Virus record (IMG/VR): IMGVR_UViG_3300032308_002092
Location: 87,208 to 151,207 of that record
Direction: 5' to 3' (one strand)
Origin: a virus
Length of the DNA: 64,000 nt
Position numbers and translations under genes: made by a program. Each line of letters opens with the position of its first letter. Position 1 is the first letter of the stretch. The notes beneath the pieces are model-generated. The model made no database searches. It was not told where the DNA came from and worked only from the letters and a program-made list of their open reading frames with translations. Below are positions 5,315 to 20,271 of this stretch, in pieces.

Positions 5315-5358
5315 TGCTGTTACTATTCGGTCTGGATGATATGATATCGGAATCGATA

Positions 5359-5703
5359 CTAATCTGGTGGTAGTTTGACTTTATACGCCGTATATGTGAT
5401 CGTTGGGAACCTGTAGGGGAACAAGAAACTCGAGAAGAAAGGATCTTGAGAATGGTCGCGGACTTTAAACGGTACTGGCTCGACAATGAAGCCATTGTCA
5501 TTGAGGTCTTCTAAGCAACCGTCGTAGTAAGACAGACCCTCTTTTCCTGACCATGTTAGAGACTTGTCCCGGGGAAATATTACTGGTGTCTTGCCCTCCA
5601 ATAGGACAGTCTCTACGTCTTTGAGTAGCTTCTCTCTAACTTCTTTATTTCGCTCTAACCTATTATTTTCAATCTGACTTTTAATCTTCTGAGCAAGATT
5701 CAT
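5359..5703 (-). CDS. Hypothetical protein
   Basis: SD AAGGAGG. Confidence 0.7.
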   Translation of the reverse strand: MNLAQKIKSQIENNRLERNKEVREKLLKDVETVLLEGKTPVIFPRDKSLTWSGKEGLSYYDGCLEDLNDNGFIVEPVPFKVRDHSQDPFFSSFLFPYRFPTITYTAYKVKLPPD

Positions 5704-5766
5704 ATTTACCTCCTTCTTTCTTGCTGTAGGTAAAATAAGCTACCTATGAATTTGTAAACCCCCACC

Positions 5767-5967
5767 TTAATCTTTTGTATCTTTGCCTCTGAAGATATCT
5801 CTGTAGTACTTAATGTCCTGCAGCTGACGCATGCGGTTAATATCATCTGCCATCCTGCGTCTGTCTTGCTCTTCGGAAGAGCCGTAGCTGCCGCGACCTA
5901 GGAATATAGGTATCATGCCAATCAATATAAAAACTGCCAACAATATAAAAAATACGTCCGTGCTCAT
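5767..5967 (-). CDS. Small membrane protein
   Basis: Single N-terminal TM helix, SD GAGGA. Confidence 0.6.
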   Translation of the reverse strand: MSTDVFFILLAVFILIGMIPIFLGRGSYGSSEEQDRRRMADDINRMRQLQDIKYYRDIFRGKDTKD

Positions 5968-5987
5968 TAATCCTCTAATTGAGATGG

Positions 5988-6137
5988 GTGAAGGGTGGGA
6001 ACCGCGTAGCCCAAGCTTCGAACTTGAAGGTACCGTTCCCTCTACGCAACTTAGGCGCGCGTAGCCTATCTAAGAACAACCCGGGGTTTTAAGTCCTTCG
6101 ATTCTTAGGGACAGCCTATGCTTTCTTCTCCCCTCAC
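5988..6137. ncRNA. Candidate structured non-coding RNA
   Basis: Intergenic. Ends pair (GTGAAGGG..CCCCTCAC, GGGAA..TTCTT, GCGTAG..CTATGC); internal stems CTAAGAA/TTCTTAG, TAGGC/GCCTA, CAAG/CTTG. Confidence 0.4.
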
Positions 6138-6165
6138 ATATTTGGGGCTTGCACGGACGCATCCG

Positions 6166-6672
6166 TCAAAGAGTCTTAAAGAGATTCTTATTGGATTTAT
6201 ACTCGTAAAAGAAATCATTAAGTAATTTCTCAACACCCCCTGCTTCACGTATTTCACTTAGTGTTAGTGTATATGTTCTCATTATGTGAGGTGCTGGACC
6301 TTCATTATGGTCTATGAAGAAGTAACAATGTATTAACTCATGATAAACTATTTGTTTAACCTCCTCCTCAGAGAGGTTTAGAGCATCAACAAAGCTTACT
6401 ATTATTAACGGCATTATGTATATGCCCATCACGCCTATGGCTTGACACGTGCCTACTGCGGTTTTGTCCGGCATATTTCCAAAGACTATTTGCGGTCTCT
6501 CTTTAGTAGAGCAGCTTAAGCCGTGACTATCGCATGTGGTGATAAAGCGGTCTACCAAGTCTTCTAGAAAGACATCAGATTTTCTTGGCCCATCATACCT
6601 AGTGGTGCAGCAAGATGCTAAGATAGAGTAGAGTATGATAAGTATTTTTATTCGATAGTGCAGTCTATACAA
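6166..6672 (-). CDS. Putative exported zinc metallopeptidase
   Basis: Hydrophobic N-terminus ending ASCC; HELIHCYFFIDH (HExxHxxxxxH) followed by Met-turn-like HIM. Confidence 0.75.
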   Translation of the reverse strand: MYRLHYRIKILIILYSILASCCTTRYDGPRKSDVFLEDLVDRFITTCDSHGLSCSTKERPQIVFGNMPDKTAVGTCQAIGVMGIYIMPLIIVSFVDALNLSEEEVKQIVYHELIHCYFFIDHNEGPAPHIMRTYTLTLSEIREAGGVEKLLNDFFYEYKSNKNLFKTL

Positions 6673-7024
6673 GGAGCGTCCTTCTTATTATCTCGTCTGT
6701 TATTAGTTTTGCTGCCTCTTTGTGTATCACAGAGTTGTCGCGTGGCACAGTGGTTACCCTATCTATGGACCCACTGGAACTCAATAGCAACACATTCACC
6801 TGATCTCCATTGGAGCTTAGTTGTATTACTTTAGCGTAATGGTTTCCGTAGCTGCAGTAAACAAACGGAGAATCTCCATAGCCTTCGCACAACCAGAAGT
6901 GCCAGTCGTCGCGAAGAAGAGAATTAGGAGGCATAGACACGTCAGGTTTGGTCTTAGGACGAGTGAACACTATTGTGTCTTCACCGTCTAGTCCTTTGAT
7001 TGTCTTAATCGATGAATTTGCCAT
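6665..7024 (-). CDS. Hypothetical protein
   Basis: ORF overlapping next gene. Confidence 0.6.
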   Translation of the reverse strand: MANSSIKTIKGLDGEDTIVFTRPKTKPDVSMPPNSLLRDDWHFWLCEGYGDSPFVYCSYGNHYAKVIQLSSNGDQVNVLLLSSSGSIDRVTTVPRDNSVIHKEAAKLITDEIIRRTLLV

Positions 7025-7187
7025 CTTTTATACAATGCCCCCTGAAGTAGTAGCCTTGTTTATCTAGGCACTCTTTTCTGTCTTGATCGATACACGACTT
7101 CACCATAAATAGAAACATCACAGAAACTAAGATCGTCAGCGCCAAGCTGTATGCAAACCTTGTCACGTAATTGTCCTTATCCATAGC

Positions 7188-7976
7188 CTACTCTTGTTGT
7201 GCTTTATTGAGATGGTCGGCAGCTGCTCTAGTCCACTCCACGTAGATTTGATCAGGGTACAGTCTGCCGAACCACGTTATGTCGCAGCCCGGAGTCCAGA
7301 AGTACCAGTTCCAGGTAGGGTGGTCGTTTAGCGCGTTGTTCCTAGCTGCTTTAGATCTGTTTGCTTCTTCTTGTAGCTTTTGCAGATCACCTTTTAGGTA
7401 GTAAAGTACTGCGTCTTCCATGCCTCTTATTGTTTCAAAGGCTTTGAGAACGTGTTTCTCCCATAGTTTACCAACGCCGTGTTGTCTATTGAGCATCAGC
7501 GTAGCATAAACTAAGTTCAACTGGTAGTGCTTGTAGACTGTAAGTGCCTCAATCAAAGCAAGTGGGCCTCTCAACCAATTGAGCAAGAAGTACCATATGA
7601 TGCGCCAGCCAGCAAAGTGCATCTTTAGCTTAAGGGTTGGGATACAGGCTATCAGCTGAGCAAACCCCAGTACTCCCAGCTTGTTTCGGCCATCTGTGGA
7701 CGACGGTGTTATCAGCCCACCAGTTTTAACTACGTATCTAAGCATAAGGATGTGGTCGATGGTTGACCCGCCAAGCATAGCACCTAGGAACATGTCCCTG
7801 CTAGATGAGTTTGGGTAATCCTTTTGCGCTATTGCCGCTTCTGGGTTGCGCCAGACTCTGCCGTCTCGGTCAATGCACTGAGACACGTATAGAGATGCTT
7901 CGTAGTCGCCAACATGAGAAAACATCCCTGCGTATAGGGTGCTGTCGCCATGTACTTCTTTGTATTTTGGGTTCAT
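7188..7976 (-). CDS. Hypothetical protein (late-type promoter)
   Basis: 262 aa, SD AGGAGG, GGTATAAC upstream. Confidence 0.75.
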   Translation of the reverse strand: MNPKYKEVHGDSTLYAGMFSHVGDYEASLYVSQCIDRDGRVWRNPEAAIAQKDYPNSSSRDMFLGAMLGGSTIDHILMLRYVVKTGGLITPSSTDGRNKLGVLGFAQLIACIPTLKLKMHFAGWRIIWYFLLNWLRGPLALIEALTVYKHYQLNLVYATLMLNRQHGVGKLWEKHVLKAFETIRGMEDAVLYYLKGDLQKLQEEANRSKAARNNALNDHPTWNWYFWTPGCDITWFGRLYPDQIYVEWTRAAADHLNKAQQE

Positions 7977-8027
7977 ATATCCTCCTACTCAGGGTTATAC
8001 CGAGAGGGTGGGGTGGTGTGGGCGCGC

Positions 8028-8041
8028 CGTAGCAGTGTCAG
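8028..8041 (+). repeat. CGTAGCAGTGTCAG box, copy 1 of 5
   Basis: Same 14-mer at 16045, 17705 (1 mismatch), 18999, 20258, all in the same orientation. Confidence 0.85.
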
Positions 8042-8045
8042 GTGT

Positions 8046-8105
8046 AGACTCGTCAGTCGCGTATACAACGCGAGACCAAGAGCGTGGCTACTCTTGGTTT
8101 CGTCT
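8046..8105 (-). ncRNA. Type II hammerhead ribozyme HH1 (3' of gene 8106-8612)
   Basis: Minus strand AGAC-GAAA-CCAAGAG(TAGCCACG)CTCTTGG-TC|TCGCGT(TGTAT)ACGCGA-CTGACGA-GTCT: full core, three perfect stems, GUC site; cleavage 8074/8073. Confidence 0.93.
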
Positions 8106-8612
8106 TTAGCCAACCAAAGCCCTAAGGTGCTCTGGGATTGAGGAGAGGTCGAGTTGCTTTGCTTTGTTTTGGCGAGGGGTCTTAGCTGGCTTGCTAGCTA
8201 CCATCTCAGCCCTAACATTAGCAATGAAGTTTTTCACTTCAACGATCTTAGTTTCTTCTGCGCCTGAAGCAATAAGATTCTTGAGTACCTCAGTTGCTTG
8301 CTTGATCTGTGGGTTAGTACGGCTACCAGGGTTTTTAGCTTCATACTTGCCGCCGCCGTTGATCTGAGGTGCCTTATTGAACCAGTTAGCTACGACGCTA
8401 GAAGCGTAAGACCTGAGTGCTTTGTCGTCATCTAGCTTACCAGCCGAGCGCTGTGCCAAGACGACTTCGCCAGAAATGAAGCCTTCAAGCATAAGGCTAA
8501 CGATCTCACGACGTTGCTCTTCAGTTACGTACGAAGAAATGGGGGCACTACTATTAAAACTAGAACCAAGGACCTGCTTAGTATACGTTACGACCGCTTC
8601 ATTTTGTTTCAT
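8106..8612 (-). CDS. Ribozyme-flanked family protein, paralogue A
   Basis: ATG 8612 with SD AGGAG; shares NWxxKxPxxNGGxKxxxKNPGSR and C-terminal xSxxPEHLxxLVG with 16919-17365 and 20305-20754. Confidence 0.85.
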   Translation of the reverse strand: MKQNEAVVTYTKQVLGSSFNSSAPISSYVTEEQRREIVSLMLEGFISGEVVLAQRSAGKLDDDKALRSYASSVVANWFNKAPQINGGGKYEAKNPGSRTNPQIKQATEVLKNLIASGAEETKIVEVKNFIANVRAEMVASKPAKTPRQNKAKQLDLSSIPEHLRALVG

Positions 8613-8636
8613 GGTAAAACTCCTATATAGAAACAT

Positions 8637-8693
8637 TGACTCATCAGTGCTGGAACCTACCAGCAGATACCCTTGGTATCGGGTATTTCGTCA
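8637..8693 (-). ncRNA. Type II hammerhead ribozyme HH2 (5' of gene 8106-8612)
   Basis: TGAC-GAAA-TACCC(GATACCAA)GGGTA-TC|TGCTGG(TAGGTT)CCAGCA-CTGATGA-GTCA; AUC site; cleavage 8666/8665. Confidence 0.93.
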
Positions 8694-8909
8694 TTAGTCT
8701 ATTGCTGCGTAGTCATCTGGGAAGAAGGTTTCTTCTTCCATCTGACGGCTATTGAAGTCTAGCTGCTCATACACATCGTCTTCATAGTCGGACAAATAGA
8801 TATAATCTTGGTTGATTTGCACCGTGTTCACGACCATACCATCGGGCATAACCACGGTTGAATTAGGATCTTGTTGCGAAAGAATCTTAATGAGTTCTGA
8901 AACCAGCAT
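8694..8909 (-). CDS. Small acidic hypothetical protein
   Basis: MLVSELIKILSQQDPN start, SD AAGGAGG. Confidence 0.7.
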   Translation of the reverse strand: MLVSELIKILSQQDPNSTVVMPDGMVVNTVQINQDYIYLSDYEDDVYEQLDFNSRQMEEETFFPDDYAAID

Positions 8910-8950
8910 ATCAAACCTCCTTTATTTACTTGTGCATATTGATTCGGGAA

Positions 8951-9355
8951 TCATGACCTGAGTGTTAGTCTAGTTCCATCTGGCATCGTCGTATAGCTTA
9001 CGTCGGATGGTAAGGCACTGGTCACTCTAGTGAAGGTTTCTAGTTGCTTGCCTTTACCATCGAACGATCGCGCGCAGCCTGTGCCATCACACAAGATGAA
9101 TGAGTCTTGGTTGTAAGTCTGAGCCATGCTCTTCATCAAGTCAAACAACGACCAGCCTATGGTGTTAGGCGAACCACTTACAAGCCAAACATTCTCCATC
9201 TGATCTTTGTAAGATCCTCTGACGTACGTAGTTTTAAACCCATTCATCCTAATGAAGAAGCCTAGCTGCTCATGATCCTGCATATTTCTAATGTCGTCTT
9301 TGTCGCTTTTGTCTGCGGAGATCAGAGCGAAGATAGTATCTAAATCTAGTTTCAT
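8951..9355 (-). CDS. Hypothetical phage protein
   Basis: ALISAD..GSYK..AQTYNQDSFI pattern (DUF3293-like, tentative). Confidence 0.6.
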   Translation of the reverse strand: MKLDLDTIFALISADKSDKDDIRNMQDHEQLGFFIRMNGFKTTYVRGSYKDQMENVWLVSGSPNTIGWSLFDLMKSMAQTYNQDSFILCDGTGCARSFDGKGKQLETFTRVTSALPSDVSYTTMPDGTRLTLRS

Positions 9356-9718
9356 GTTAACCCCACTTTCGTTTGTTTGCTAAAACACAAAGTACACCAA
9401 AGAATAAAGATATTAAGAACTTGAAAAAAGCATACTCAAGATTGCCGTTAATCAAATCAAACCATCCAAATACCTGTAGGAAGATACTTACGATAAACAG
9501 CGCGATGGCTAAGTTCACTTGCCTCTCCTTACGATCAGGAGGATCGCGGTAATTATTTTCTTAAAAAAGTCAATCATCTTTCTCTCCTTCTTTTTCTGGG
9601 TGAAATTTATCGAGCACCTTAGCGAAGATCATCAGCAGCAGTACTGTTACTGCGAGCCCACCGATTATTGATATCGGTATCGCGACTCCAATAGCTATAA
9701 CGTAAAGCAATATACTCA

Positions 9719-9925
9719 TTAGCTAACTTCCTCGCTTTCCTCGTAGATGTACCAGTCATTGGGCTTAAGACTAGCTGTCTTCTGCTCATACTCGTGTTTG
9801 CCGTATGAATACGCGAAGGCTCTGCCGTTCCAAACTATGAACGGAGCTGGGTGATCTTTGTGTGAGATCTTAGCTCCCTTGAGGGCCTCAATCAATGCTT
9901 CTTCTAGAGTCATGATCAGCTCCAA
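9719..9925 (-). CDS. Hypothetical protein
   Basis: MTLEEALIEALKGAKI...NDWYIY, a common phage small-protein pattern. Confidence 0.55.
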   Translation of the reverse strand: MELIMTLEEALIEALKGAKISHKDHPAPFIVWNGRAFAYSYGKHEYEQKTASLKPNDWYIYEESEEVS

Positions 9926-10060
9926 TCGTTAGGGTCTTTGTTTTTGCCCTTGACTTCTTCGTAGAAGATAATACAAAGCAATCCCACCATGAAGATGCCA
10001 CCAAAGAAACCCGCTATAGAAATTGCAGCCATGAATCCTGTTAATGCTGAGTCCACGATA

Positions 10061-10411
10061 TTACTCTCCTAGTATTTGTTGCTCTATTTGTTGCGTCATA
10101 TATTTGTCTAACGTGAACTGAATAACATGGTTGTGAACATCTTTTACCTTTAGATAAACCGAATGAGGTGTTAGATCGCCTCTTGAATTCAGATAGCAGT
10201 TCGCTACTAGCTTAAAGGAATAAGGGGTTTTTGGATGTTTTATGGTCTTAGATACTGTGGTGTACGACTTACCTTTTCGCTTAGCACACTCTTTAACAGC
10301 ATAATGGTAGTGAGAGATAAGGGCGTCTAGGGTAAATTCGCTGCCTTCTACTGGACCCAGGCTTAGGTCTATGATTGTTCTATGCTCTCCAGTAACCGTA
10401 AATAAACACAT
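10061..10411 (-). CDS. Hypothetical protein
   Basis: ORF downstream of a CCGAAAC motif. Confidence 0.6.
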   Translation of the reverse strand: MCLFTVTGEHRTIIDLSLGPVEGSEFTLDALISHYHYAVKECAKRKGKSYTTVSKTIKHPKTPYSFKLVANCYLNSRGDLTPHSVYLKVKDVHNHVIQFTLDKYMTQQIEQQILGE

Positions 10412-10459
10412 GTTGCTAACCCCTACTCGTTATCGTTGAATAGTATTGGTTTCGGATAC

Positions 10460-10696
10460 TCACTTAAGGTCTTGTGTCTCTGAGTAGAGAAGGTGTGACA
10501 TAGAGTCCATCACCACAAGAGTACTCTGCTTGCCATACTTAGACACCATGTCTGCCTTGAGGGAGCGAAACTCAGCTCTACACTTCTCTCGCTCTGCGAC
10601 TTCTCTGAAGTATTGTCTACCCTCGGCGGCCTCGTAGTAAGAGAGATCAGCTATGGATACTATAAATTTTTTGATTAGCTCGCAATTGTAGTTCAT
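10460..10696 (-). CDS. Hypothetical protein
   Basis: ATG 10696 with SD GGAGG. Confidence 0.65.
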   Translation of the reverse strand: MNYNCELIKKFIVSIADLSYYEAAEGRQYFREVAEREKCRAEFRSLKADMVSKYGKQSTLVVMDSMSHLLYSETQDLK

Positions 10697-10725
10697 GCAA
10701 CCTCCAATAAGATATTGGATCGGGA

Positions 10726-10956
10726 TCACCTATCGGATGGGTTGCCGTGGCCGTTATCGCATAAGTCTTCTCCACAGCCAGCGCCACCGCCACACCCATC
10801 ACCATAACCGTTGCCATCGCCATAGCCATCACCACTAGGGCTGCAATTACTTAAACCACAGCCATAACCATCGCCGCTTTTCTTAATATAGTTGTCACCA
10901 TTGGGTCTACCGTAATGGTAACCGTAGCTAAAACCATCTATTTCTAGAGATTCCAC
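10726..10956 (-). CDS. Gly/Asp/Tyr-rich IDG..PSD family micro-protein 1
   Basis: SLEIDG start, GYG/GDG repeats, PSDR end. Confidence 0.75.
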   Translation of the reverse strand: MESLEIDGFSYGYHYGRPNGDNYIKKSGDGYGCGLSNCSPSGDGYGDGNGYGDGCGGGAGCGEDLCDNGHGNPSDR

Positions 10957-10962
10957 GATAGC

Positions 10963-11181
10963 TCACCAATCAGATGGGTAGTGATCGAACCGATCTTCGG
11001 TGCCACTACCGCAACCATCACCATACTCATCGCTATGTCCATCACCTCTGCCATAACCGTCGCCGTCAGCAGTGCCACCACTTAAACCCCAACCATCACC
11101 ATCGCTGTAAGTATGACTATCGCCGTTGGCCATGCCGTAACGATCGCCGTAACCAAAAGCATCTATTTTTAGAGATTTCAT
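10963..11181 (-). CDS. IDG..PSD family micro-protein 2
   Basis: SLKIDA start, GDG repeats, PSDW end. Confidence 0.75.
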   Translation of the reverse strand: MKSLKIDAFGYGDRYGMANGDSHTYSDGDGWGLSGGTADGDGYGRGDGHSDEYGDGCGSGTEDRFDHYPSDW

Positions 11182-11201
11182 GGTTTATTCTCAGTCTGAG
11201 A

Positions 11202-11537
11202 TTAAAGCCACTTATTCAAGTCAGCTTTCATCACAAAGATATCCTTACCGAAGATCGTACCAGCTTCGTTTAGCACAGTCTCAGCCTGAGGACCTTCGAC
11301 GCACAGCTGGCCGAGACCCTTGGTCGTACCCCATCGGTGGATGTTGTAGGCGTTGTCAAGCCTGATTCTCTCGCTGGAGAGGCGAGTAACGAAGCCGATG
11401 AATACCCAACCGCGATCCATGACTGCGATGACTAGATCGCCGTTCTCATAGTCAAGCTTAGGCTGAGGTGCGCCTCGCAAAGACTCCTCAACCTGACTGT
11501 TGATTACATAATTACCGAATAACTTACTCTTAGCCAT
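11202..11537 (-). CDS. Conserved phage protein, possible Sm/SH3-like beta-barrel
   Basis: VIAVMDRGWVFIG...LDNAYNIHRWGTTKGLGQL; SD AAGGAGG. Confidence 0.7.
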   Translation of the reverse strand: MAKSKLFGNYVINSQVEESLRGAPQPKLDYENGDLVIAVMDRGWVFIGFVTRLSSERIRLDNAYNIHRWGTTKGLGQLCVEGPQAETVLNEAGTIFGKDIFVMKADLNKWL

Positions 11538-11674
11538 AATAAACCTCCTTTGTTTCTGTCTATATTTATATCGGAAATGATACTCTGTGGACCGTTACAA
11601 TCCTCTTTCGCTGTTATACATCAGAAATACAATCGCAACAGTGAAACCAAGTATAAGTAGCGCAAATACACTCA

Positions 11675-11890
11675 TTAAGAAATCTCGCTTGCTTCTACGT
11701 ATTGGCTGAAGATTTCTGGGTATCTTTGTACGTAACCGTTGTCTTCTAGGAAGTAGTACAGAGCTACACCAGGTGGTACTTCGTCATCGAAGTTGCTCCG
11801 CCAAGCGTAGTCTTCGAAGTCACTCGTAGTTAATCCCGTGACCTTAACACACAGCTTATCTACTTTGTTCATGTAAGACTTGAAAGACAT
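11675..11890 (-). CDS. Hypothetical protein
   Basis: ORF downstream of a CCGAAAC motif. Confidence 0.65.
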   Translation of the reverse strand: MSFKSYMNKVDKLCVKVTGLTTSDFEDYAWRSNFDDEVPPGVALYYFLEDNGYVQRYPEIFSQYVEASEIS

Positions 11891-11948
11891 ACAAACCCCT
11901 TATTGAAGACACCCCATCGTTGGGATATATAATCTGGTTTCGGGATTC

Positions 11949-12143
11949 TCACCAGTCTGATAGATCATCGTAGCCATAACAGTCACCGTAGCTCTCTCCA
12001 TCACCATTTCCATAGCCGTATCCGCTACCACTACCGTCGTATTCTGTAATGATGATGATATTAGGGCCTTCAGAGCCGCTGTCGCCGTCACCGTTATAGT
12101 GGCCGTCACCACAACCCCAGCCATCTATTTCTAGCTTGTCCAT
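11949..12143 (-). CDS. IDG..PSD family micro-protein 3
   Basis: MDKLEIDG...LSDW. Confidence 0.75.
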   Translation of the reverse strand: MDKLEIDGWGCGDGHYNGDGDSGSEGPNIIIITEYDGSGSGYGYGNGDGESYGDCYGYDDLSDW

Positions 12144-12149
12144 TGCTCT

Positions 12150-12389
12150 TCACTTATCTGACGGGCCGTGATGGCCCTTGCCACTGCCATCTCCAACAAC
12201 GAGATCTTGCCCCAGACAATTTAGATCATAACCATAGCCATCGCCATTAGGGAGGCTGTCTCCGTAGCCACAGCCATACCTCTCTCCATCGTAGCCATAA
12301 CCATAGTTCCCATGGACACCACTGCCATCGCCGCAGAAGTAACCGTGAAAGCGTCCATAACCTAAGCCGTCTATGTCTAGCTTGTCCAT
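12150..12389 (-). CDS. IDG..PSD family micro-protein 4
   Basis: MDKLDIDG...PSDK. Confidence 0.75.
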   Translation of the reverse strand: MDKLDIDGLGYGRFHGYFCGDGSGVHGNYGYGYDGERYGCGYGDSLPNGDGYGYDLNCLGQDLVVGDGSGKGHHGPSDK

Positions 12390-12392
12390 GGT

Positions 12393-12689
12393 TTATGCTT
12401 TACGCTTCTTCTTTTGGCCGTCTTTGATGGCCTGAACCTCTGCTTGGTCAAGCGGGACACCGTGGCGGTACCAGCTATCACCCCACACCGCGCCGTCTTC
12501 CCAGTAGGTTATAGCAGGGCTACCCTCACGATGTAACCTACCTTGGCAATACCAATACTCGGTGTCTACCTTGCCGTCTTCGCTATAGTAGACAATGGCA
12601 GGGCCATCCACACGATGTGGAACACCCTCCTCCAGGTATCGCTCGGACTCTACCTTACCGTTTTCGTAGTGTTTCTTAACGCACTCCAT
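12393..12689 (-). CDS. MORN-variant (HRxDGPA) repeat protein
   Basis: YENGKV..HRVDGPAI, EDGKV..LHREGSPAI repeats. Confidence 0.8.
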   Translation of the reverse strand: MECVKKHYENGKVESERYLEEGVPHRVDGPAIVYYSEDGKVDTEYWYCQGRLHREGSPAITYWEDGAVWGDSWYRHGVPLDQAEVQAIKDGQKKKRKA

Positions 12690-12701
12690 AAATCTCCTTG
12701 A

Positions 12702-12941
12702 TTACCAATCTGAAGGCATGTCATGATCATCACCTGAACCCCAGCCGTTGCCGTGGTTGTAGGACGTATCACCATAGCCAACACCATCGCGATAAATTGG
12801 GTGATAGCCACGACCATGGAGATCACTGCCACCATTGCCCCAGCCATCCCCACTCGCCATGGAGTATTCACCTTCTCCCTCGCCGTTACCATCCCACCAA
12901 CAGTCTGGTGAGCCGTCGCCATCTATGTCTAGCTTTTCCAT
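12702..12941 (-). CDS. IDG..PSD family micro-protein 5
   Basis: MEKLDIDG...MPSDW. Confidence 0.75.
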   Translation of the reverse strand: MEKLDIDGDGSPDCWWDGNGEGEGEYSMASGDGWGNGGSDLHGRGYHPIYRDGVGYGDTSYNHGNGWGSGDDHDMPSDW

Positions 12942-12948
12942 AAGTTAG

Positions 12949-13215
12949 TTACCAATCTGAGGGTTCTAAATCTTCCCCATCACCAGCACCATCTCCACCG
13001 GTGTCGCCACCAGAACCGTCGCAATAACCATCACCGCCGAGGGTGGTATAACCGCTGCCTCTTCCGTCGCCGGTTCCAGTGCCGCAGTCGCCGTCGCCAT
13101 AGCGATCGTCTGGTATAGAGGGGCTATAGCAACCTATACCGCCGTCCCCATTAGGGGACGTTCTGTCTACACCACAACCAAATCCATCCACAGCGAGCTT
13201 GCTTTCTAATATCAC
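12949..13215 (-). CDS. IDG..PSD family micro-protein 6
   Basis: KLAVDG...EPSDW. Confidence 0.75.
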   Translation of the reverse strand: MILESKLAVDGFGCGVDRTSPNGDGGIGCYSPSIPDDRYGDGDCGTGTGDGRGSGYTTLGGDGYCDGSGGDTGGDGAGDGEDLEPSDW

Positions 13216-13227
13216 TTAATATGTCCT

Positions 13228-13461
13228 CTACCAGTCAGAAGGGTCACCCTCAGGCTGTATCTCATGGAATTGGATGAATGTCATAGAATCGGATTTTGTG
13301 AGTTCGTGTTCGCCGTAGCCATAGCCGTCACCATTTGGTTTGGTTCTGCCTATGAAGCTATCTGGCGTTTTTACGCCCTCTCCAAAGCCGTCGCCATGTA
13401 TCCTACCGTATTGACCATAGCCGTAGCCAACTCCGTCTACGATCGTCTCGCCTATCTTCAT
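13228..13461 (-). CDS. IDG..PSD family micro-protein 7
   Basis: TIVDGVGYG...DPSDW. Confidence 0.75.
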   Translation of the reverse strand: MKIGETIVDGVGYGYGQYGRIHGDGFGEGVKTPDSFIGRTKPNGDGYGYGEHELTKSDSMTFIQFHEIQPEGDPSDW

Positions 13462-13927
13462 GGGTCCTCATATCCATTAAAGCTGCCCGCCAAGAAAAGC
13501 CGCCCGCCAAGAACGCTATTGAGCTTAACGTAGTTAAACTCTTCTTTTGAGGTTCGCTTAAGTGTTTCAAGCATAAATAGCTTCTTGGCTTCCTCTGATT
13601 CCATCACTTTGATACCATCTACCCAGATGCTGCATTCCGGACTACATATCTCTTCATACCCAGCCTTATATCCAGCAGCGGACACCTCTTCTAAAGTGAG
13701 AGGCTGGTCTTTGATGGCCTCATACATTTCTCGCACCTGTTCATACGACACTTCTGTTTTGCGATGAGGACCCCCAGTTTGTTGAGAGCCGTTCTCACTA
13801 CCTCCTTGACCATTATGGGAAACCATTAGGCCCATCACTATAAACGCCGCCGCCGCACCCATTACTTACCCTCCTCTTTCTTACACAACACCTATCTTCA
13901 TAGGTCCTCATATCCATTAAAGCTGCC
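13451..13927. repeat. 37-bp direct repeats (13451-13487, 13891-13927) flanking one gene
   Basis: CCTATCTTCAT[G/A]GGTCCTCATATCCATTAAAGCTGCC, 1 mismatch. Confidence 0.9.
13458..13862 (-). CDS. Hypothetical protein between direct repeats
   Basis: SD GAGGAGG; hydrophobic N-terminus. Confidence 0.6.
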   Translation of the reverse strand: MGAAAAFIVMGLMVSHNGQGGSENGSQQTGGPHRKTEVSYEQVREMYEAIKDQPLTLEEVSAAGYKAGYEEICSPECSIWVDGIKVMESEEAKKLFMLETLKRTSKEEFNYVKLNSVLGGRLFLAGSFNGYEDP

Positions 13928-14198
13928 ACCATTTACGTGGGGTGCGTGGGACACTTGCATGAGGATGCGGCTTTTCTATCTCAAGGTGCCGAATGGCTAC
14001 AACATCAAATAGCTCTATCCCATTCGTGTTGCGACCCTCTTTATCAACGTAAACACAGGAAGCAACCCCCGGAGCAAACAGCACCATTAAATAAAACGCC
14101 GGTGACCAATCAGCGCGTTCGTTGAATTCAACAAACGAACCCACTAGTCCGTTTCTAAGTGTGATCTCGTCCCAAGCCTTTAGTTTTGTAATATCCAT
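13917..14198 (-). CDS. Hypothetical protein
   Basis: SD AAGGAGG. Confidence 0.65.
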   Translation of the reverse strand: MDITKLKAWDEITLRNGLVGSFVEFNERADWSPAFYLMVLFAPGVASCVYVDKEGRNTNGIELFDVVAIRHLEIEKPHPHASVPRTPRKWWQL

Positions 14199-14238
14199 AA
14201 TGGCCTCCTTTTTATAGTAATTTTAATACACTAATCAT

Positions 14239-14548
14239 TCCCAAACTTCAATCTCACCAGTCAGCTCAACTACCTGAACCGGCTCACCTTAGGTATCTCA
14301 AATACAGAAACATCCTCGTCCCTTAGATTTTCAGTCTTGCCTATGGGAATTCTTATCTCATACAAAACCCCATCGCTACCTGTCACGCGAGTGTATCCAC
14401 GTTCTTTCAAGCTTGAGAGCTGCTCCCTCGTGAGGTCCTCAAAGATTTCTATGGGCACAGGTCCTTTGTCTGTCAAGAACCCTTCTTCAATTAACCGGTC
14501 AATTACTTTAGACATATTACAAACTACTCCCAAACTTCAATCTCACCA
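14239..14548. repeat. 21-bp direct repeats (14239-14259, 14528-14548) flanking one gene
   Basis: TCCCAAACTTCAATCTCACCA, exact. Confidence 0.85.
14270..14515 (-). CDS. Hypothetical protein
   Basis: ATG 14515 (MSKVID) with GGAG upstream. Confidence 0.55.
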   Translation of the reverse strand: MSKVIDRLIEEGFLTDKGPVPIEIFEDLTREQLSSLKERGYTRVTGSDGVLYEIRIPIGKTENLRDEDVSVFEIPKVSRFR

Positions 14549-14757
14549 CTCCGAAGGGGTCTCCCTTAGTATCCCTGTCTCTTGTACCTGCAAAATGGGC
14601 ACCGAACAACAGTCTAACATTACCTTGAGAACCGAAGTCCTCATCAAAGACTGGCAGGCTTCGTCCCATGCCTCACACTCCAACTACATACAGAACGAAG
14701 ATCCCTATCAGGATGGCAGCCCAAACCCCAATTAGTATCTCCATAGTCCCTATCCCC

Positions 14758-14952
14758 TTAAAGCAGGCTCAGTATGAAGCCTAGCACCACCAAGAACACC
14801 CAAAGCACCACAGAGTACAAAACAACAGTCAAGTACCATAGCCACAAAGCGGTCATCCCGACTATCTCTCTGAAGCCGGGGATAGACATCAAACCGCATA
14901 CTGCAGCTATAGCCAACACCAGTACGACCACCCTTGCCAGTAAGCGCCGCAT
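14758..14952 (-). CDS. Small membrane protein
   Basis: Two hydrophobic segments; SD GGAGG. Confidence 0.6.
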   Translation of the reverse strand: MRRLLARVVVLVLAIAAVCGLMSIPGFREIVGMTALWLWYLTVVLYSVVLWVFLVVLGFILSLL

Positions 14953-15023
14953 AACCCCTCCCCATATCGTGATTCATATACCTTCGGAATATAACTCAAG
15001 GGTCTGATGCCCACTTCCCACCC

Positions 15024-15233
15024 CTACTTAAACTTACAGCTCAAACCAGCTTTATTCAGGCCGTTATATCTATAGCAAATCACTTCGCTATTCTCTAGTC
15101 TGTACACACCAAAACCAACCGCCTTAGCTTCGCTAAAGCCATACTCACCGTCAACACCTCCATCAACGTTAGGCTCAGATACCCTAAAAGTACATCCGCT
15201 CAATACAATCAATCCAACCACTAGCACCTTCAT
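15024..15233 (-). CDS. Small lipoprotein
   Basis: MKVLVVGLIVLSGC lipobox; SD GGAGG. Confidence 0.7.
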   Translation of the reverse strand: MKVLVVGLIVLSGCTFRVSEPNVDGGVDGEYGFSEAKAVGFGVYRLENSEVICYRYNGLNKAGLSCKFK

Positions 15234-15289
15234 AAACCCCTCCCCACAATTACCCTACAACTATCCATTATCAATTCGGAATCCCATAC

Positions 15290-16250
15290 CTTACCTTCCC
15301 CAAACCCTGGGTGGAAGATATAGTAACCGCCGTAACTAACTTATAAACCCCTAAAATAACCTCTTATAACAACCTATACCCACCTATACCCAGTTATAAC
15401 TACCTACTAATCCCTATACCCTCAAATACCCTAATCCCCTACGTAACTACTACTATTAGATACACTTAAGTGCCAAAACCTACCGTAACTAACACGTACG
15501 TATCACCTTAACCCCATACCATTCCCAACCAACCACCTATACCAGTTAGTAGCACGAAAGGGATAGGGAGTGGACTGGTAGAGTTATAGTGATAATGATC
15601 CTCACCATTACTATAGGAAAGACATAAAAACTATAGTGATTTAACTAGCCTAGGGCGAGCCTATAGGCAGGTTGTTTCCGCCCACAACTATCCCTACTCT
15701 CGCAACAACATCTCTCACTTGTGGCCACGCCGCGGTAACCTATAGGGTTACAAATCACCACGGTTTTGCCCACCTATAGGTTTACAGGTCGGGTATCCTG
15801 CTCCCTCCTACCCTATCCCTACAGATACCTCCCGGGTGGTTTGCGTGTTGTCCTAGGGGTAAATCGGGTGTCGAGGAAATCATTAGGCTTTTTGGTAGTT
15901 GGGTTGGGAATGGTGCTTTCCCCTAGGGGTAAAATGAGATAGGTGGGTGGCTTTGTTGATATTGCTAGAGATTTTAGTTTCGGGATGATAGGAGTGAGAG
16001 AAGTCCTAGGGAGTTTTGCTCGTTTTAGGGCTTCGGGTGTGGGGCGTAGCAGTGTCAGGTGGTTTGGTGGGGTTGTTGGGCTACGGGGTGGGATAATGAT
16101 ATCAGTGAGTTACGGGTGTTTTGGTGGCGCGAGTTGGTGCGCTTAGGGCTGGGGGTTTATATACACTTTTATTTTGTGGTCTTGAGTTGTAGTTGGGAGA
16201 GTAGGATAAGTAGGGTGCGAATTCAAGTTGTTTGGGGGTGGCTATGATAA
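15290..16250. other. Mirror-symmetric non-coding region; candidate replication origin or terminus/packaging region
   Basis: C-rich left arm, G-rich right arm, iterated ACCTATACC and CCGTAACTAAC, central CCTATAGG/CCTAGG palindromes, 13-bp inverted repeat 15518-15530/15902-15914. Confidence 0.55.
16045..16058 (+). repeat. CGTAGCAGTGTCAG box, copy 2
   Basis: Exact 14-mer. Confidence 0.85.
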
Positions 16251-16263
16251 GCCCGTAGCCCAA

Positions 16264-16506
16264 TCAGACTATATACTCTTCGTCTAGTGGCTCATCGTAT
16301 AGGTGAGCTATGGAGTGCCATGGTCCTGGGACTGTGAAGAGGTCTAAGTTGCCAGAGCGTATAGCGTGAGCCTTAGCCATAGCTTCGTCCATGTCAGAGT
16401 GAGAGGAAACTACCCACGTCACTAGGTTGTGGACTTCGGAATCCACCTTCACGATAGTGTCGAAAGTAGAGTGGTCGTACATCACGAAGTACCTAATAGG
16501 TTGCAT
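16264..16506 (-). CDS. Hypothetical protein
   Basis: SD TAAGGAG. Confidence 0.6.
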   Translation of the reverse strand: MQPIRYFVMYDHSTFDTIVKVDSEVHNLVTWVVSSHSDMDEAMAKAHAIRSGNLDLFTVPGPWHSIAHLYDEPLDEEYIV

Positions 16507-16589
16507 AACATAGTCTCCTTACTTAATGGACAAGTTAATGAAGATGAGAGTCATTATCAACAAGAATATAGCCGCTGTGCCTGGATCCA

Positions 16590-16805
16590 TCACTCTGTCT
16601 CTTCCACGGTTATGGTGTAGGACTTGTCGTACTGGTCCTTCACTATGATGGTGCGCTTAGGTGACCTAAAGCTACCGTCTTCGTTTAAGTCCATCTTTAT
16701 CTCTACGTTCCTGAGCTTTATCTCAGTCGCCTTAGGTATGGCCGCAGTGATCACATGAGTGATATAGTCGCAGTATGCTAATCTCAACCCGCTTGACTTA
16801 AACAT
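16590..16805 (-). CDS. Hypothetical phage protein
   Basis: SD TAAGGAGG. Confidence 0.7.
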   Translation of the reverse strand: MFKSSGLRLAYCDYITHVITAAIPKATEIKLRNVEIKMDLNEDGSFRSPKRTIIVKDQYDKSYTITVEETE

Positions 16806-16843
16806 AGTCGTTCCTCCTTATATAGGGGATGGTATCGGAAACC

Positions 16844-16906
16844 GGACTCATCAGCATGGCTATCAGCCATGGACCTAGGATCTCGAGCGAGTCCTAGGTT
16901 TCGTCC
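16844..16906 (-). ncRNA. Type II hammerhead ribozyme HH3 (3' of gene 16919-17365)
   Basis: GGAC-GAAA-CCTAGGA(CTCGCTCGAGA)TCCTAGG-TC|CATGGC(TGATA)GCCATG-CTGATGA-GTCC; cleavage 16872/16871. Confidence 0.93.
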
Positions 16907-16918
16907 TCGGTTACGGAC

Positions 16919-17365
16919 TTATCCCACCAGGGATCTCAAGTGCTCGGGTAGTGCGGAGAGGTCCACAGTCTTGGCAGCAGACTTAGGCTGTGGGCGGTTA
17001 GCTTCAATGAACGCTTCGAGCTCAGCTGTAACTTCAGATCCCTTAGCGATCAGAGCCGCTTTGAGAGCTAGAGCTTGCTTGAACTCTGGGCTACCAGATC
17101 GGCTACCAGGGTTCTTGACTTCGTGCTTGACCCCACCGTTGAGGGCAGGTGACTTACGGAGCCAGTTGCTGAGCAGACCTGAAGCGTAGCTTCGCGCCTT
17201 AGCTTCGCTGTACTCCTTGCTCAAGCTGATCTCTCCGTTCATGAGTCCCGCTACGAGCATACCGATTGCTTCCTTGCGTTGCTCACTAGTTAGGGTGACT
17301 GCTTCCGCAGTTACTCCAACGATTGACTGTACGATCTCTACGACTGCCTTTGATTGTGACTTCAT
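16919..17365 (-). CDS. Ribozyme-flanked family protein, paralogue B
   Basis: ATG 17365 with SD TAAGGAG; NWLRKSPALNGGVKHEVKNPGSRSG..LPEHLRSLVG. Confidence 0.85.
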   Translation of the reverse strand: MKSQSKAVVEIVQSIVGVTAEAVTLTSEQRKEAIGMLVAGLMNGEISLSKEYSEAKARSYASGLLSNWLRKSPALNGGVKHEVKNPGSRSGSPEFKQALALKAALIAKGSEVTAELEAFIEANRPQPKSAAKTVDLSALPEHLRSLVG

Positions 17366-17383
17366 ATGTAACACTCCTTAATT

Positions 17384-17440
17384 AGACTCATCAGTGCCAG
17401 AACCTACTGGCAGATACCCTTGCTATCGGGTATTTCGTCT
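17384..17440 (-). ncRNA. Type II hammerhead ribozyme HH4 (5' of gene 16919-17365)
   Basis: AGAC-GAAA-TACCC(GATAGCAA)GGGTA-TC|TGCCAG(TAGGTT)CTGGCA-CTGATGA-GTCT; cleavage 17413/17412. Confidence 0.94.
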
Positions 17441-17444
17441 TAAG

Positions 17445-17594
17445 TTACCGACAGTAGTGATCGGCGTAGTTGCAGTAGAAGTCATAGACTTCGTCGTCAG
17501 TCCACGAGTCACAAGAGTAGTCTACGTCATCGTTTCCCGCTGCGATCATCTGAGCGAGGATGATGTTCACCGTAGTGCGAAGCGAACCTCTCAT
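17445..17594 (-). CDS. 49-aa hypothetical protein
   Basis: Not in track; MRGSLRTTVN...YADHYCR with SD AAGGAG. Confidence 0.5.
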   Translation of the reverse strand: MRGSLRTTVNIILAQMIAAGNDDVDYSCDSWTDDEVYDFYCNYADHYCR

Positions 17595-17704
17595 ATGAAG
17601 CACTCCTTGGTTAATCAACCTTGGTTGGTTGATAGTTATATATGGTATCGGGAAACTGGGGCTGCATCGGATCGTGGGGCCGAGGTGTGGGTTCGGGTGC
17701 TGGG

Positions 17705-17718
17705 CGTAGCAGTGTCGG
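17705..17718 (+). repeat. CGTAGCAGTGTC box, copy 3
   Basis: CGTAGCAGTGTCGG. Confidence 0.8.
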
Positions 17719-17741
17719 GCTTCACGCAGACACCCTCGGTA

Positions 17742-17924
17742 TCACTCCAGACCCTTGCAGGAGCTAGCGTCGTTGCTCTCGTTGGCCTGACAAGCCACGT
17801 ACTTCTCGCTGCTTTCCTTGGAGTTAGCCACCGAGATCTCACCTACTACGTTGATGGAGGTGTTGACTACAACTCCGCCCACGATAGCGTACACACAGTA
17901 CAAGACCACTAGTTCGATGCCCAT
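17742..17924 (-). CDS. Small membrane protein
   Basis: Hydrophobic N-terminus. Confidence 0.5.
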   Translation of the reverse strand: MGIELVVLYCVYAIVGGVVVNTSINVVGEISVANSKESSEKYVACQANESNDASSCKGLE

Positions 17925-18016
17925 TATAATGCCCCTTATAAACCTTAAAGCCCACTTAAACTGCCATTCTAATAGCTAGAATGGTATTCTAAAATCTAGT
18001 ATGTTATACTTTGCCC

Positions 18017-18334
18017 TTACCCCGGCAAGTTCTGCTTGTAGTACAAGTCACCCCAGTCGATGTAGAAGTCCTCGACCTTAGCGTGATCCCAAGCGTCGGA
18101 CCACAGCTTGATATCCTCGTAGCTATCCATGCTCATCTCCCTGCCAGTCACCAACTTAAAGGCATCGTTCATGAACATATTAGCGTCTACGTAGTCATGC
18201 GAAGCGCACTCATGCTTATGGTTGTGCTTGTTAGCTTCGCATATATCAACCATAGTGGCTAGACCAAGCTCAGCCATCAGTAACTCGGAGAACTTTTCTG
18301 CTATCTGTTCGTGTAGCTCTACTTCGAAATCCAT
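18017..18334 (-). CDS. Hypothetical phage protein
   Basis: CASHDYVDANM motif. Confidence 0.7.
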   Translation of the reverse strand: MDFEVELHEQIAEKFSELLMAELGLATMVDICEANKHNHKHECASHDYVDANMFMNDAFKLVTGREMSMDSYEDIKLWSDAWDHAKVEDFYIDWGDLYYKQNLPG

Positions 18335-18489
18335 CGTTCACCCCGGTAAGTTGTCTAGTATAAAGTTAAGCTCTTCTACTACTTCGTCGGAAACAGGTTG
18401 ATCTAGTGCCTCATCAGGTACATCTGGGTAGTATTCCAGCTTGAATTCGTCCCAAGCGAACTGCATTAACTGTCTAAGCGTAAGTTCGT

Positions 18490-18699
18490 TCATTGTCCAC
18501 CTCTTTCTTCTAAGGCTTGATACACTCGCTTCAGTAGCTCTGTGGGTTCGGTATAGAAATCATCCTTATCTAACTGCACCATATCCAGGTTTATCAGCGC
18601 CTGACTGAACCTCATATCGGGATAGGTCCTCAAGTAGGTCTCTAGTATCCGTAGTAGCTCCAAGTTAGCATGTAGTCGGACGCTCGTTGGTTGACTCAT
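18490..18699 (-). CDS. Hypothetical phage protein
   Basis: YPDMRFSQAL..DFYTEP pattern; SD AGGAGG. Confidence 0.7.
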   Translation of the reverse strand: MSQPTSVRLHANLELLRILETYLRTYPDMRFSQALINLDMVQLDKDDFYTEPTELLKRVYQALEERGGQ

Positions 18700-18998
18700 A
18701 ATAACCTCCTAGTTACATATAGATATAGATTCGGATACGACTATCAGAACCACTCACCCTTTCTTACAATCACCACTCTACTCGCTGTATTGACTATCAT
18801 CGCTCTTCTCCTTCTGCCATCGGAGAAGTATCTCATAGCCTCTTGTAAAGCAGAGAATGAGTGTATAGTCATGAAAGACCGTGCATCAGTTGAGCCGTGC
18901 CAAACCTGAACTTGATACATAATAAACTCCAATGTGTAAGAGAACTTTGTTATTCTCTTATTAATAATATATAGTTACGGGAATTAAATTCCCCTGGG

Positions 18999-19012
18999 CG
19001 TAGCAGTGTCAG
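18999..19012 (+). repeat. CGTAGCAGTGTCAG box, copy 4
   Basis: Exact 14-mer. Confidence 0.85.
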
Positions 19013-19047
19013 ATAGTGGTATAATACCCTTAGGTTAAGGAGAACAC

Positions 19048-19524
19048 ATGGAAAAGCTAATCAAGCATAGCAACGGGCAGTGGACACTAGTTAAGGCCAA
19101 GGACACTAGTAAGCACGGCAACTTCGGTGGTGGTAACTCCTTTGACGGAGGAGACCAGTATGTCCCCTCTAAAGAGGGTATTGCAGCAAACGCGGCTAGA
19201 GCAGCGGAGCAGAAACGCCTAGAAGCAGAAGCGAGCGCAGTATCGGCTGCACACAAAGATGTAGCCGACAGAGGCGAAGTTCGCCGACGCACCGAGCCGC
19301 CGAAAACCGTAGAAGATCACCCACTACACGGCGAGTTAGTTAATCACTTCAAGAACAAGCATGGGTTGGACCATCACGCTGCGTTTGCTGCGGCTACTCA
19401 TGTCATGACTTCGGGCCTCGGCGAAAAGACTCATGAAAGTGACTCAGATAAAGCAGCTACTGGTTCTGGAGCAGCCGAGGCCAAGAAGATCCTGGCTGGT
19501 AAGGTTAAGACCAAGATCTCTTAG
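19048..19524 (+). CDS. Hypothetical protein, possible internal virion protein
   Basis: Only well-supported plus-strand gene in the early region; GGTATAAT at 19018-19025 and SD TAAGGAG. Confidence 0.75.
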   Translation: MEKLIKHSNGQWTLVKAKDTSKHGNFGGGNSFDGGDQYVPSKEGIAANAARAAEQKRLEAEASAVSAAHKDVADRGEVRRRTEPPKTVEDHPLHGELVNHFKNKHGLDHHAAFAAATHVMTSGLGEKTHESDSDKAATGSGAAEAKKILAGKVKTKIS

Positions 19525-19529
19525 TCGTC

Positions 19530-19796
19530 TTATATAAGACCTTGTTCACTCAGTTGCTTCATCAGTGAATCATCATTCTTAGACCCAAAGACTCTCACTA
19601 CATCCTCATAATCACATAGTTCATCGGGGTCGTCGTGACATACGAACGCTAGTCCTTCGACTGTCTTCCACACTGAGAACTCATATATGCAGTGAACTCC
19701 TGTCTCTACGTAACCATCAGGTTCAGTGATTGAGCCATCGAACATCTTCCCCGCTTCTAACTCTGCAACAAGTTGATCGACTGTGAACTTACTCAT
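19530..19796 (-). CDS. Acidic hypothetical protein (tandem paralogue 1)
   Basis: TGVHxIYxFxVWxTxEGLxFxCxxDPDE shared with 19873-20139. Confidence 0.8.
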   Translation of the reverse strand: MSKFTVDQLVAELEAGKMFDGSITEPDGYVETGVHCIYEFSVWKTVEGLAFVCHDDPDELCDYEDVVRVFGSKNDDSLMKQLSEQGLI

Positions 19797-19813
19797 AGTG
19801 ACTCCTTAAAGTT

Positions 19814-19873
19814 AGACTCATCAGTGTGACTCTTAGTCACAGACTATCTTCGTTTCGGAAGATAGTTTCGTCT
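19814..19873 (-). ncRNA. Type II hammerhead ribozyme HH5
   Basis: AGAC-GAAA-CTATCTTC(CGAAAC)GAAGATAG-TC|TGTGAC(TAAGA)GTCACA-CTGATGA-GTCT; cleavage 19842/19841. Confidence 0.94.
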
Positions 19874-20139
19874 TATGCGAGACCTACTGCACTCAGCTGC
19901 TGATCAAGAGTGTCGTCTTCCTTATCCTCCTCGAAGAACCGCTTGACATCGTCGTAAGTTAGTATCTCATCGGGGTCTTCAGTGCATATGAACCTCAAAC
20001 CTTCGTCAGTGTCCCACACCTCGAAGTCGTATATGGAGTGAACACCGGTGCTCACGCCTCCGTGTGACAGGAACTCACCTGCAGTTAGTCTACCATCGGC
20101 GATCGCTTCTTCTAACTCTCTGACTGTGATCTTACTCAT
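19873..20139 (-). CDS. Acidic hypothetical protein (tandem paralogue 2)
   Basis: Paralogue of 19530-19796; SD GAGGAG. Confidence 0.8.
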   Translation of the reverse strand: MSKITVRELEEAIADGRLTAGEFLSHGGVSTGVHSIYDFEVWDTDEGLRFICTEDPDEILTYDDVKRFFEEDKEDDTLDQQLSAVGLA

Positions 20140-20257
20140 GACTTCTCCTCATGTTGTTCACACATTAATAGAATCGGAAAACACACTAATAAATATTTAA
20201 GTTTTTCAACTCATTTATTTATTAATAATATATAGTTTCGGAAACTATATCCCTGGG

Positions 20258-20271
20258 CGTAGCAGTGTCAG
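20258..20271 (+). repeat. CGTAGCAGTGTCAG box, copy 5
   Basis: Exact 14-mer, adjacent to GC hairpin 20273-20297. Confidence 0.85.

Follow-up and report, generated by a model that had tools for sequence, protein, structure and literature searches.

Type II hammerhead motifs bordering the genes of a virus-only protein family in the early region of an uncultured tailed phage

Why would a phage place self-cleaving RNA motifs before and after genes of one and the same protein family? The question is raised by a 64,000-nucleotide stretch of viral DNA (positions 87,208 to 151,207 of the IMG/VR record IMGVR_UViG_3300032308_002092; hereafter the window, meaning the whole stretch analysed, whose own coordinates are used throughout). 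Its minus strand contains six type II hammerheads (HH-A to HH-F). A sequence-only reading of this DNA had recognized four of them, arranged as a leader just before the ribosome-binding site and a trailer just after the stop codon of two paralogous genes, and had suggested that double self-cleavage may produce circular or end-protected mRNAs. The coordinates and strand that it gave for these four motifs are borne out by sequence inspection and by our scan; the two paralogues were also correctly identified, but HH-E, HH-F, a third paralogue and a 91-amino acid (aa) relative had been overlooked. Our analyses indicate that the six hammerheads are probably active, host-independent processing sites in the polycistronic transcripts of the phage early region. 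The locus is a well-preserved further example of a known arrangement, to which it adds a newly recognized protein family, and it establishes no new mechanism.

Conserved cores, covarying stems and intergenic placement

When the full 151,207-nt record was scanned with structure taken into account, six good hammerhead motifs emerged, all on the coding strand and all within one 13-kb stretch. Around them, small minus-strand open reading frames (ORFs) are clustered and tightly packed, as is typical of an early region. The pattern CGAAA-N(10-40)-CTGATGAG was found four times against 0.06 expected. All six share a common layout consisting of a 4-bp open stem II (RGAC/GUCY or UGAC/GUCA), GAAA, the stem III hairpin, a U-H cut site, the stem I hairpin and CUGANGA; in the hammerheads examined, three helices surround the core, stems I and III being closed by loops and stem II open. 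The core elements CUGANGA and GAAA are invariant in the six window copies and in 22 of 22 related copies, and the earlier description of intact cores in a type II layout holds for all four motifs to which it was applied. Cut triplets in the window are GUC or AUC, in agreement with the NUH rule, which also permits the A that replaces C at the cut-site position in the leader of a related contig, L147. The G10.1-C11.1 pair adjoining the core is present in all 22 hammerheads, among which position 7 (the N of CUGANGA) varies between U and C, the core of HH-A being CUGACGA.

The stems provide the evidence for selection on structure. In an alignment of ten sequences (A4), comprising the six window hammerheads and four from related contigs, 160 of 160 stem cells pair and 13 of the 16 base pairs have changed on both sides, whereas sliding the partners reduces pairing to 27-38%. 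A covariance model built from this alignment (R1) detected twelve more copies in related loci, with scores of 47-77 bits. Across the 22 hammerheads, from nine loci, 99.4% of stem cells pair versus 27-36% with slid partners, again with 13 of 16 pairs changed on both sides; the covariation score of this alignment, which was itself fitted to the model, was reached by none of 500 shuffles. The compensatory stem pairs pointed out earlier (TGCTGG/CCAGCA, TGCCAG/CTGGCA, TCGCGT/ACGCGA and CATGGC/GCCATG) are correct as quoted, and the covariation across the 22 hammerheads supports the conclusion that had been drawn from them, namely selection on structure. Five of the six motifs (HH-B to HH-F) have the canonical three-way junction as their minimum-energy fold. 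For most type II examples, loop I has been reported to form a pseudoknot with the nucleotides immediately 3' of stem II (PMC3088659). In our alignment, a 4-bp pseudoknot between loop I and this tail, considered in one fixed register only, pairs in 61% of cells; since loop lengths differ, other registers are possible. As judged from these comparisons of sequences, the six elements are genuine, selected type II hammerheads.

Each of the six lies 0-11 nt after a stop codon and is followed, at 21-73 nt, by a ribosome site and start codon. All three paralogues are led by a hammerhead, at a distance of 12-18 nt when measured from where the model match ends, and two of them are boxed on both sides. 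Paralogue 1 (8106-8612; this and all genes and hammerheads below are on the minus strand) has HH-B as its leader (8637-8693; predicted cut 8666/8665; R1 score 73.4 bits) and HH-A as its trailer (8046-8105; predicted cut 8074/8073; 59.6 bits). Its stop codon abuts stem II of HH-A, which is at the same time the leader of a 262-aa gene downstream (7188-7976), whose start codon, with a ribosome site, stands 73 nt past the ribozyme. Paralogue 2 (16919-17365) is preceded by HH-D (17384-17440; predicted cut 17413/17412) and followed by HH-C (16844-16906; predicted cut 16872/16871). The latter also leads a 71-aa gene (16590-16805), a 65-aa homologue of which is hammerhead-led too in contigs L018 to L020, and an orthologous hammerhead is found at the same place as HH-C in L144 and L018. 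Paralogue 3 (20305-20754) is led by HH-F (20773-20829; predicted cut 20802/20801; 74.2 bits), and HH-E (19814-19873; predicted cut 19842/19841; 70.9 bits) lies between two 88-aa ORFs, one of which it leads (19530-19796). The cut sites predicted earlier for the first four motifs, and the resulting excised units of 592 nt (unit 1) and 541 nt (unit 2), are correct against these coordinates, and double cleavage would indeed free units with a ribosome-binding site and a whole ORF. A third unit, from 20801 to 19842, would measure 960 nt and include paralogue 3, a GC hairpin, a conserved 14-nt motif, an AT-rich spacer and an 88-aa ORF.

The cassette in related phages and the frequency of the arrangement

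We retrieved the contigs of close homologues and scored them with R1. Both leader and trailer accompany the orthologues of gene 1 in L147 (50% identity), of gene 2 in L144 (80%) and of gene 3 in L143 (87%). In two other related phages, L018 and L146, the first copy has a leader only and the second a trailer only, and leaders were detected at both copies of L021 and at those of L148 and L016. Among full-length copies (n=14), a leader is present in 12, a trailer in seven and both in five. The proposed tie between the hammerheads and one protein family is thus kept in the orthologues of related phages, and the question of whether homologues are bracketed receives a divided answer: leader, trailer or both occur in 14 of the 14 copies, whereas the 17 non-redundant copies from distant phages placed on our phylogenetic tree (L001-L015) have no hammerheads, yet are multi-copy per genome. 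The tree, built by maximum likelihood, groups the ribozyme-linked copies in well-supported clades, one of eleven rows (96/91) and one that unites gene 1 and L147 (99/97). The link between family and hammerhead is, across the contigs compared, conserved within one clade. Given that the leaders have a common stem I and loop type (UGCCAG-UAGGUU-like), and that the trailers of the gene 1 and gene 2 lineages have a common CCUAGG-type stem III, the leader-gene-trailer cassette seems older than the split between the paralogues; leader, gene and trailer would form an old cassette retained through duplication and speciation in this phage group. A recently copied mobile ribozyme-gene unit was considered and rejected, each paralogue being closer to its orthologue in another phage and the copies being syntenic. 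One of the hammerhead-free family copies, in L002, stands just downstream of nine tRNA-like genes (1584-2639), one of them scored as tRNA-Sec.

How exceptional is such bracketing among phages? A pattern scan of IMG/VR gave at least 120 stretches, and our scanner confirmed hammerheads in 86 of these loci; the type II hammerheads in these 86 other phage contigs, among the matches listed, form a sample of 135. At least 49 adjacent same-strand pairs occur in the 86 loci, with spacings of 206-3335 nt. Among the matches listed, an ORF stops at most 5 nt upstream of 97 of the 135 hammerheads, a ribosome site and start codon follow within 40 nt in 100, and both statements apply to 71 (53%), as compared with 1.2% of random same-strand positions. 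This tight packing of stop codon, ribozyme and ribosome site argues for devices of intercistronic processing and insulation. The most frequent hammerhead-led genes among the matches listed are those of DUF932 (at least 12 loci), further recurrent families being DUF3846, DUF6011 and SNF2 helicases. Runs of four to five successive small genes, each after a type II hammerhead, were also seen, in L046 (5,560-6,980), L070 (170-2,870), L093 (270-1,640) and L133 (4,500-7,040).

Hammerheads flanking single genes were described in prophages by Perreault et al. in 2011, who found that clustered prophage hammerheads cleave co-transcriptionally and that ardA is repeatedly hammerhead-led; they proposed processing to single-gene mRNAs, and also considered spliced or circular products, neither of which was detected (PMC3088659). 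With this precedent, the at least 49 pairs in 86 loci and the hammerhead-led DUF932, DUF3846, SNF2 and ardA genes, the earlier view of family-specific bracketing as the unusual part of the locus was overstated. What is peculiar to the window is that three paralogues of one genome all have a hammerhead arrangement. The prophage clusters consist of multiple same-strand hammerheads, type II included, around single genes or short blocks (PMC3088659), and here likewise six hammerheads occur within 13 kb on the coding strand of a phage with terminase and portal genes. The differences are that the hammerhead-led genes of this uncultured 151-kb phage include three paralogues from a new virus-only family, that the leader-gene-trailer cassette is traceable through orthologues and paralogues, and that cleavage is predicted. 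Two neighbouring type II hammerheads of Desulfovibrio vulgaris cleave in vivo, as revealed by cyPhyRNA-seq (PMC8782182). They resemble those of the window in their type II topology, in their close spacing by small phage-like genes and in their 5'-hydroxyl and cyclic-phosphate products (predicted here); they differ in being located in a bacterial chromosome, in a prophage-like context and with other genes, and in that their activity has been shown, whereas here it is predicted. The role of bacterial and phage hammerheads is an open question (reviewed in PMC6765202), and the locus constitutes a clean test case, with three near-identical leader ribozymes on paralogues, two of them boxed, and orthologous cassettes that reveal which parts have been retained.

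Processing of early-region transcripts and its alternatives

In the reading that we favour, each ribozyme spans the gap from the stop codon of one gene to the ribosome-binding site of the next, so that self-cleavage would leave two defined products. The upstream message would carry the stem III hairpin and a 2',3'-cyclic phosphate at its 3' end, and the downstream message, with a 5'-hydroxyl, would start flush in the stem I hairpin without any unpaired nucleotide. A gene with a ribozyme on both sides would be freed as a single-gene mRNA with a hairpin at each end, the predicted stabilities being -7.6 to -15.1 kcal/mol for stem III and -6.7 to -8.7 kcal/mol for stem I, and such a hairpin-ended release would uncouple the stability and translation of the gene from those of its neighbours. 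It is established that 5'-terminal hairpins and non-monophosphate 5' ends hinder the entry of RNase E, and 3' hairpins block 3' exonucleases. In view of this behaviour and of the predicted hairpin ends, we read the arrangement as self-contained processing and insulation of cistrons. A similar logic is found in the early polycistronic RNA of phage T7, where RNase III cuts leave hairpin-ended single-gene messages, and in RiboJ, a synthetic ribozyme insulator. Intercistronic cuts uncouple a gene from its transcript context in these cases as they would here; T7 uses a host enzyme and another end chemistry and RiboJ is engineered, whereas the present arrangement is natural and its RNA is predicted to cut itself. 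What is observed is the set of motifs, with their covariation, placement and conservation; that they cleave in vivo, and that this affects the stability or translation of the mRNAs, is what we infer, the direction of the effect depending on the RNases of the host.

Several points weigh against processing as a full account of the locus. When 60 nt of upstream context are included, a thermodynamic model gives low stem II probabilities for HH-A, HH-C and HH-E, so that cleavage may be conditional or slow. Whether cleavage stabilizes or destabilizes the messages is not readable from the sequence, and where the host has RNase J, a 5'-hydroxyl can mark RNA for decay, the glmS ribozyme being an example. 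Processing also leaves unexplained the presence of ribozymes on both sides of this particular family. Finally, the Rfam type II model (RF02276, Hammerhead_II) has a gathering cut-off of 37 that was not reached, HH-D scoring 29.4 bits (E 0.011) and HH-B 26.1 bits, and HH-A, HH-C, HH-E and HH-F gave no Hammerhead_II report even with E-value thresholds. At the gathering score, Rfam has no match in the window and matches only tRNAs in 17 homologous loci. The search with a type II model that had been suggested earlier therefore matches two of the motifs, below the cut-off, and leaves the other four unreported. This miss is a limit of the model's threshold and not a failed structural feature, RF02276 score membership being a matter of one curated model and not a defining property of the ribozyme class; at its curated cut-off, the Rfam type II model misses well-formed phage examples.

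Among the rival explanations, the one that survives best, itself unlikely, is a translation-gated switch, in which cleavage would be coupled to the translation of the upstream gene and the ribozyme would tune the ratio of neighbouring proteins instead of cutting constitutively. Gating would operate through a small alternative hairpin in or next to the stop codon, mimicking the 3' strand of stem II and holding its 5' strand. An exact copy of the 3' strand does exist 6-9 nt before stem II in HH-C (GUCC), in HH-E (GUCU), in the L144 orthologues and in the L147 trailer, where the copy became GCCU in step with stem II. Alternative hairpins are present in the minimum-energy folds, and in most phage hammerheads a stop codon directly adjoins stem II. 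However, these are three independent cases only, among about 16 lineages, the chance of a 4-mer match in a 12-nt window is about 1 in 25, and the family leaders HH-B, HH-D and HH-F have no exact copy. The sites with a copy (16907-16918 and 19874-19883 in the window, and about 1349-1366 in L147) can form a hairpin around the upstream stop codon.

Circular mRNA, the product proposed earlier, is decidedly improbable. After double cleavage, the 5'-hydroxyl and 2',3'-cyclic phosphate ends would be joined by reverse hammerhead ligation or by a host RtcB-type ligase, giving a circular, exonuclease-resistant and translatable message. The end chemistry fits, tandem hammerheads of the same type always let the ends of a unit rebuild a hybrid hammerhead, and this route is used by retrozymes and viroid-like RNAs (PMC6765202, PMC7229834). 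In these elements, too, two hammerheads of the same polarity delimit a unit whose ends are able to rebuild a hybrid and whose end chemistry is suited to RtcB or tRNA ligase. They differ in being eukaryotic or subviral, mostly non-coding, equipped with type I or III hammerheads, and in replicating or transposing through circles; instead of non-coding or repeat-bounded elements with type I or III ribozymes, the window contains syntenic, type II-flanked cistrons with ribosome sites.

As the sequence-only reading had it, the ends can formally re-form a hybrid hammerhead, with a stem II of 3 bp in unit 1 (GUCA/AGAC) and 4 bp in unit 2 (GUCU/GGAC), but these 3-4 bp would have to close about 500 nt, and RNA folding gives them a pair probability of 0.03 (unit 1) and 0.004 (unit 2). 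Stem II covaries inside each ribozyme and not between leader and trailer; in L147 the trailer has shifted to GGC/GCC and the leader still has GAC/GUC. Both ribozymes are present in only about a third of the family copies (5/14), and clustered prophage hammerheads gave no detected circles (Perreault et al., PMC3088659). The ligase search proposed earlier found neither RtcB nor a PF09414 RNA ligase in the 91%-complete phage genome. As the unit lengths are not multiples of three and the units have stop codons, circles would offer no endless reading frame. With neither ligase found and so weak a hybrid stem II, the proposal of circular mRNAs is unsupported, and circularization is unproven and unlikely. 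A search of the phage genome for PF09511 had no match and its positive control was also unmatched, as was the case for the phage-type RNA polymerase PF00940; the predicted circular-junction pattern had no occurrence in metagenome contigs, a collection in which the native leader ribozyme pattern had none either. We give equally little credence to a broader version, in which reverse ligation or an RtcB-type ligase of the host would circularize the boxed cistrons in infected cells, or the basic virus-only protein would act on the RNA ends made by the ribozymes. Circularization, if true, would mean that natural, translatable mRNA circles encode one phage protein family.

A shade less credible again is that stem III of the leaders doubles as a site recognized by a putative phage factor, as an RNA hairpin, a DNA inverted repeat or a promoter element. 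HH-B, HH-D and HH-F have the same stem III and loop but for one loop base (8668-8685, 17415-17432 and 20804-20821). Their stem I varies by compensatory changes, and stem III reads differently in the orthologous ribozymes of L144 and L147. On the coding strand of the early region (2,230-21,081, minus strand) we counted 13 occurrences of the loop motif YCCGAWAS, where scaling the window-wide expectation of 12.1 to the region's share of the sequence predicts about two. Nevertheless, gene conversion among the copies would yield the same pattern, and the motif is not enriched across the window (17 occurrences versus 12.1 expected, with 12 of 100 shuffles reaching 17). The near-identity of these stem III sequences points to concerted evolution or to a genome-specific recognition site. 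Several YCCGAWAS copies are intergenic and lie outside hammerheads. The least credible reading takes the hammerheads for selfish or relic elements without benefit to the phage: against their great abundance and patchiness in phage contigs, and the distant family members that manage without them, stand the perfectly kept cores, the compensatory changes that orthologous positions acquired as the proteins drifted apart (to 50-87% identity), and the exact placement between stop codon and ribosome site.

The boxed protein family and other features of the region

The boxed genes, as far as their sequences and predicted folds tell, define a new, unannotated, virus-only family, with 674 detectable members in metagenomes and phage contigs. 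Paralogue 1 encodes a basic, all-helical protein of 168 aa (pI 9.6); an AGGAG site precedes its start codon at 8612, and in alignments this start coincides with the N-termini of the other paralogues. Paralogue 2 (148 aa) is 80% identical to the L144 copy and paralogue 3 (149 aa) 87% identical to that of L143, the latter paralogue being 37-44% identical to the other two. A 91-aa relative (1218-1493), with no hammerhead nearby, best matches the N-terminal part of the family (E 4.5e-10). The family has no assignment in Pfam, PHROGs or NCBIfam, and GenBank phages gave no match by megablast of the region or tblastn of the protein. A sequence search of the PDB with the protein had no match, nor had Foldseek at E 0.001 or better, and the best VIA Z-score (5.9) is confined to a helical hairpin. 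The AlphaFold model is confident and all-helical (pLDDT 89), and in the structure atlas it matches only three clusters above TM 0.5, all of them unnamed and virus-only. A loop with the conserved residues N-W...K-x-P...N-G-G and K-N-P-G-S-R, and an L-P-E-H-L tail at the C-terminus, are candidates for the functional parts of the protein. An ArdA-like acidic DNA mimic was also considered; the basic pI of the family proteins (8.6-9.6) argues against it.

The source is an uncultured tailed phage whose genes include a Pol III alpha/exonuclease fusion, a chaperonin, SbcC, ribonucleotide reductase, a portal protein and a terminase, the best match of the terminase being that of Myxococcus phage Mx1 (27% identity). 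Near paralogue 3, a 220-aa ORF (21174-21836) matches the nuclease portion of IscB weakly and only in part (E 3.9e-5, far short of the cut-off); it probably encodes an HNH-type endonuclease.

Two further features of the early region deserve mention. A 14-nt motif, CTGACACTGCTACG, has five copies on the coding strand, one of them with one mismatch (8028-8041, 16045-16058, 17705-17718, 18999-19012 and 20258-20271, minus strand). Including two plus-strand matches elsewhere, the window contains seven occurrences at two mismatches or fewer, versus 0.5 expected. Most of the copies lie between genes, with C-rich sequence behind them; one can be read as a sigma-70-like -35 element with TATAGT 16 nt on, and the others have no -10 element. 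The motif may be a promoter or regulatory site specific to this phage. Elsewhere the region is packed, but about 1 kb (15234-16263) is devoid of convincing ORFs. On the minus strand its first half is C/A-rich and its second half G/T-rich, the plus-strand GC skew flipping from -0.68 to +0.62 near 15,750. Palindromes resembling CCTATAGG and TCACTATAG are numerous in this stretch, which could be a replication origin or a cluster of promoters.

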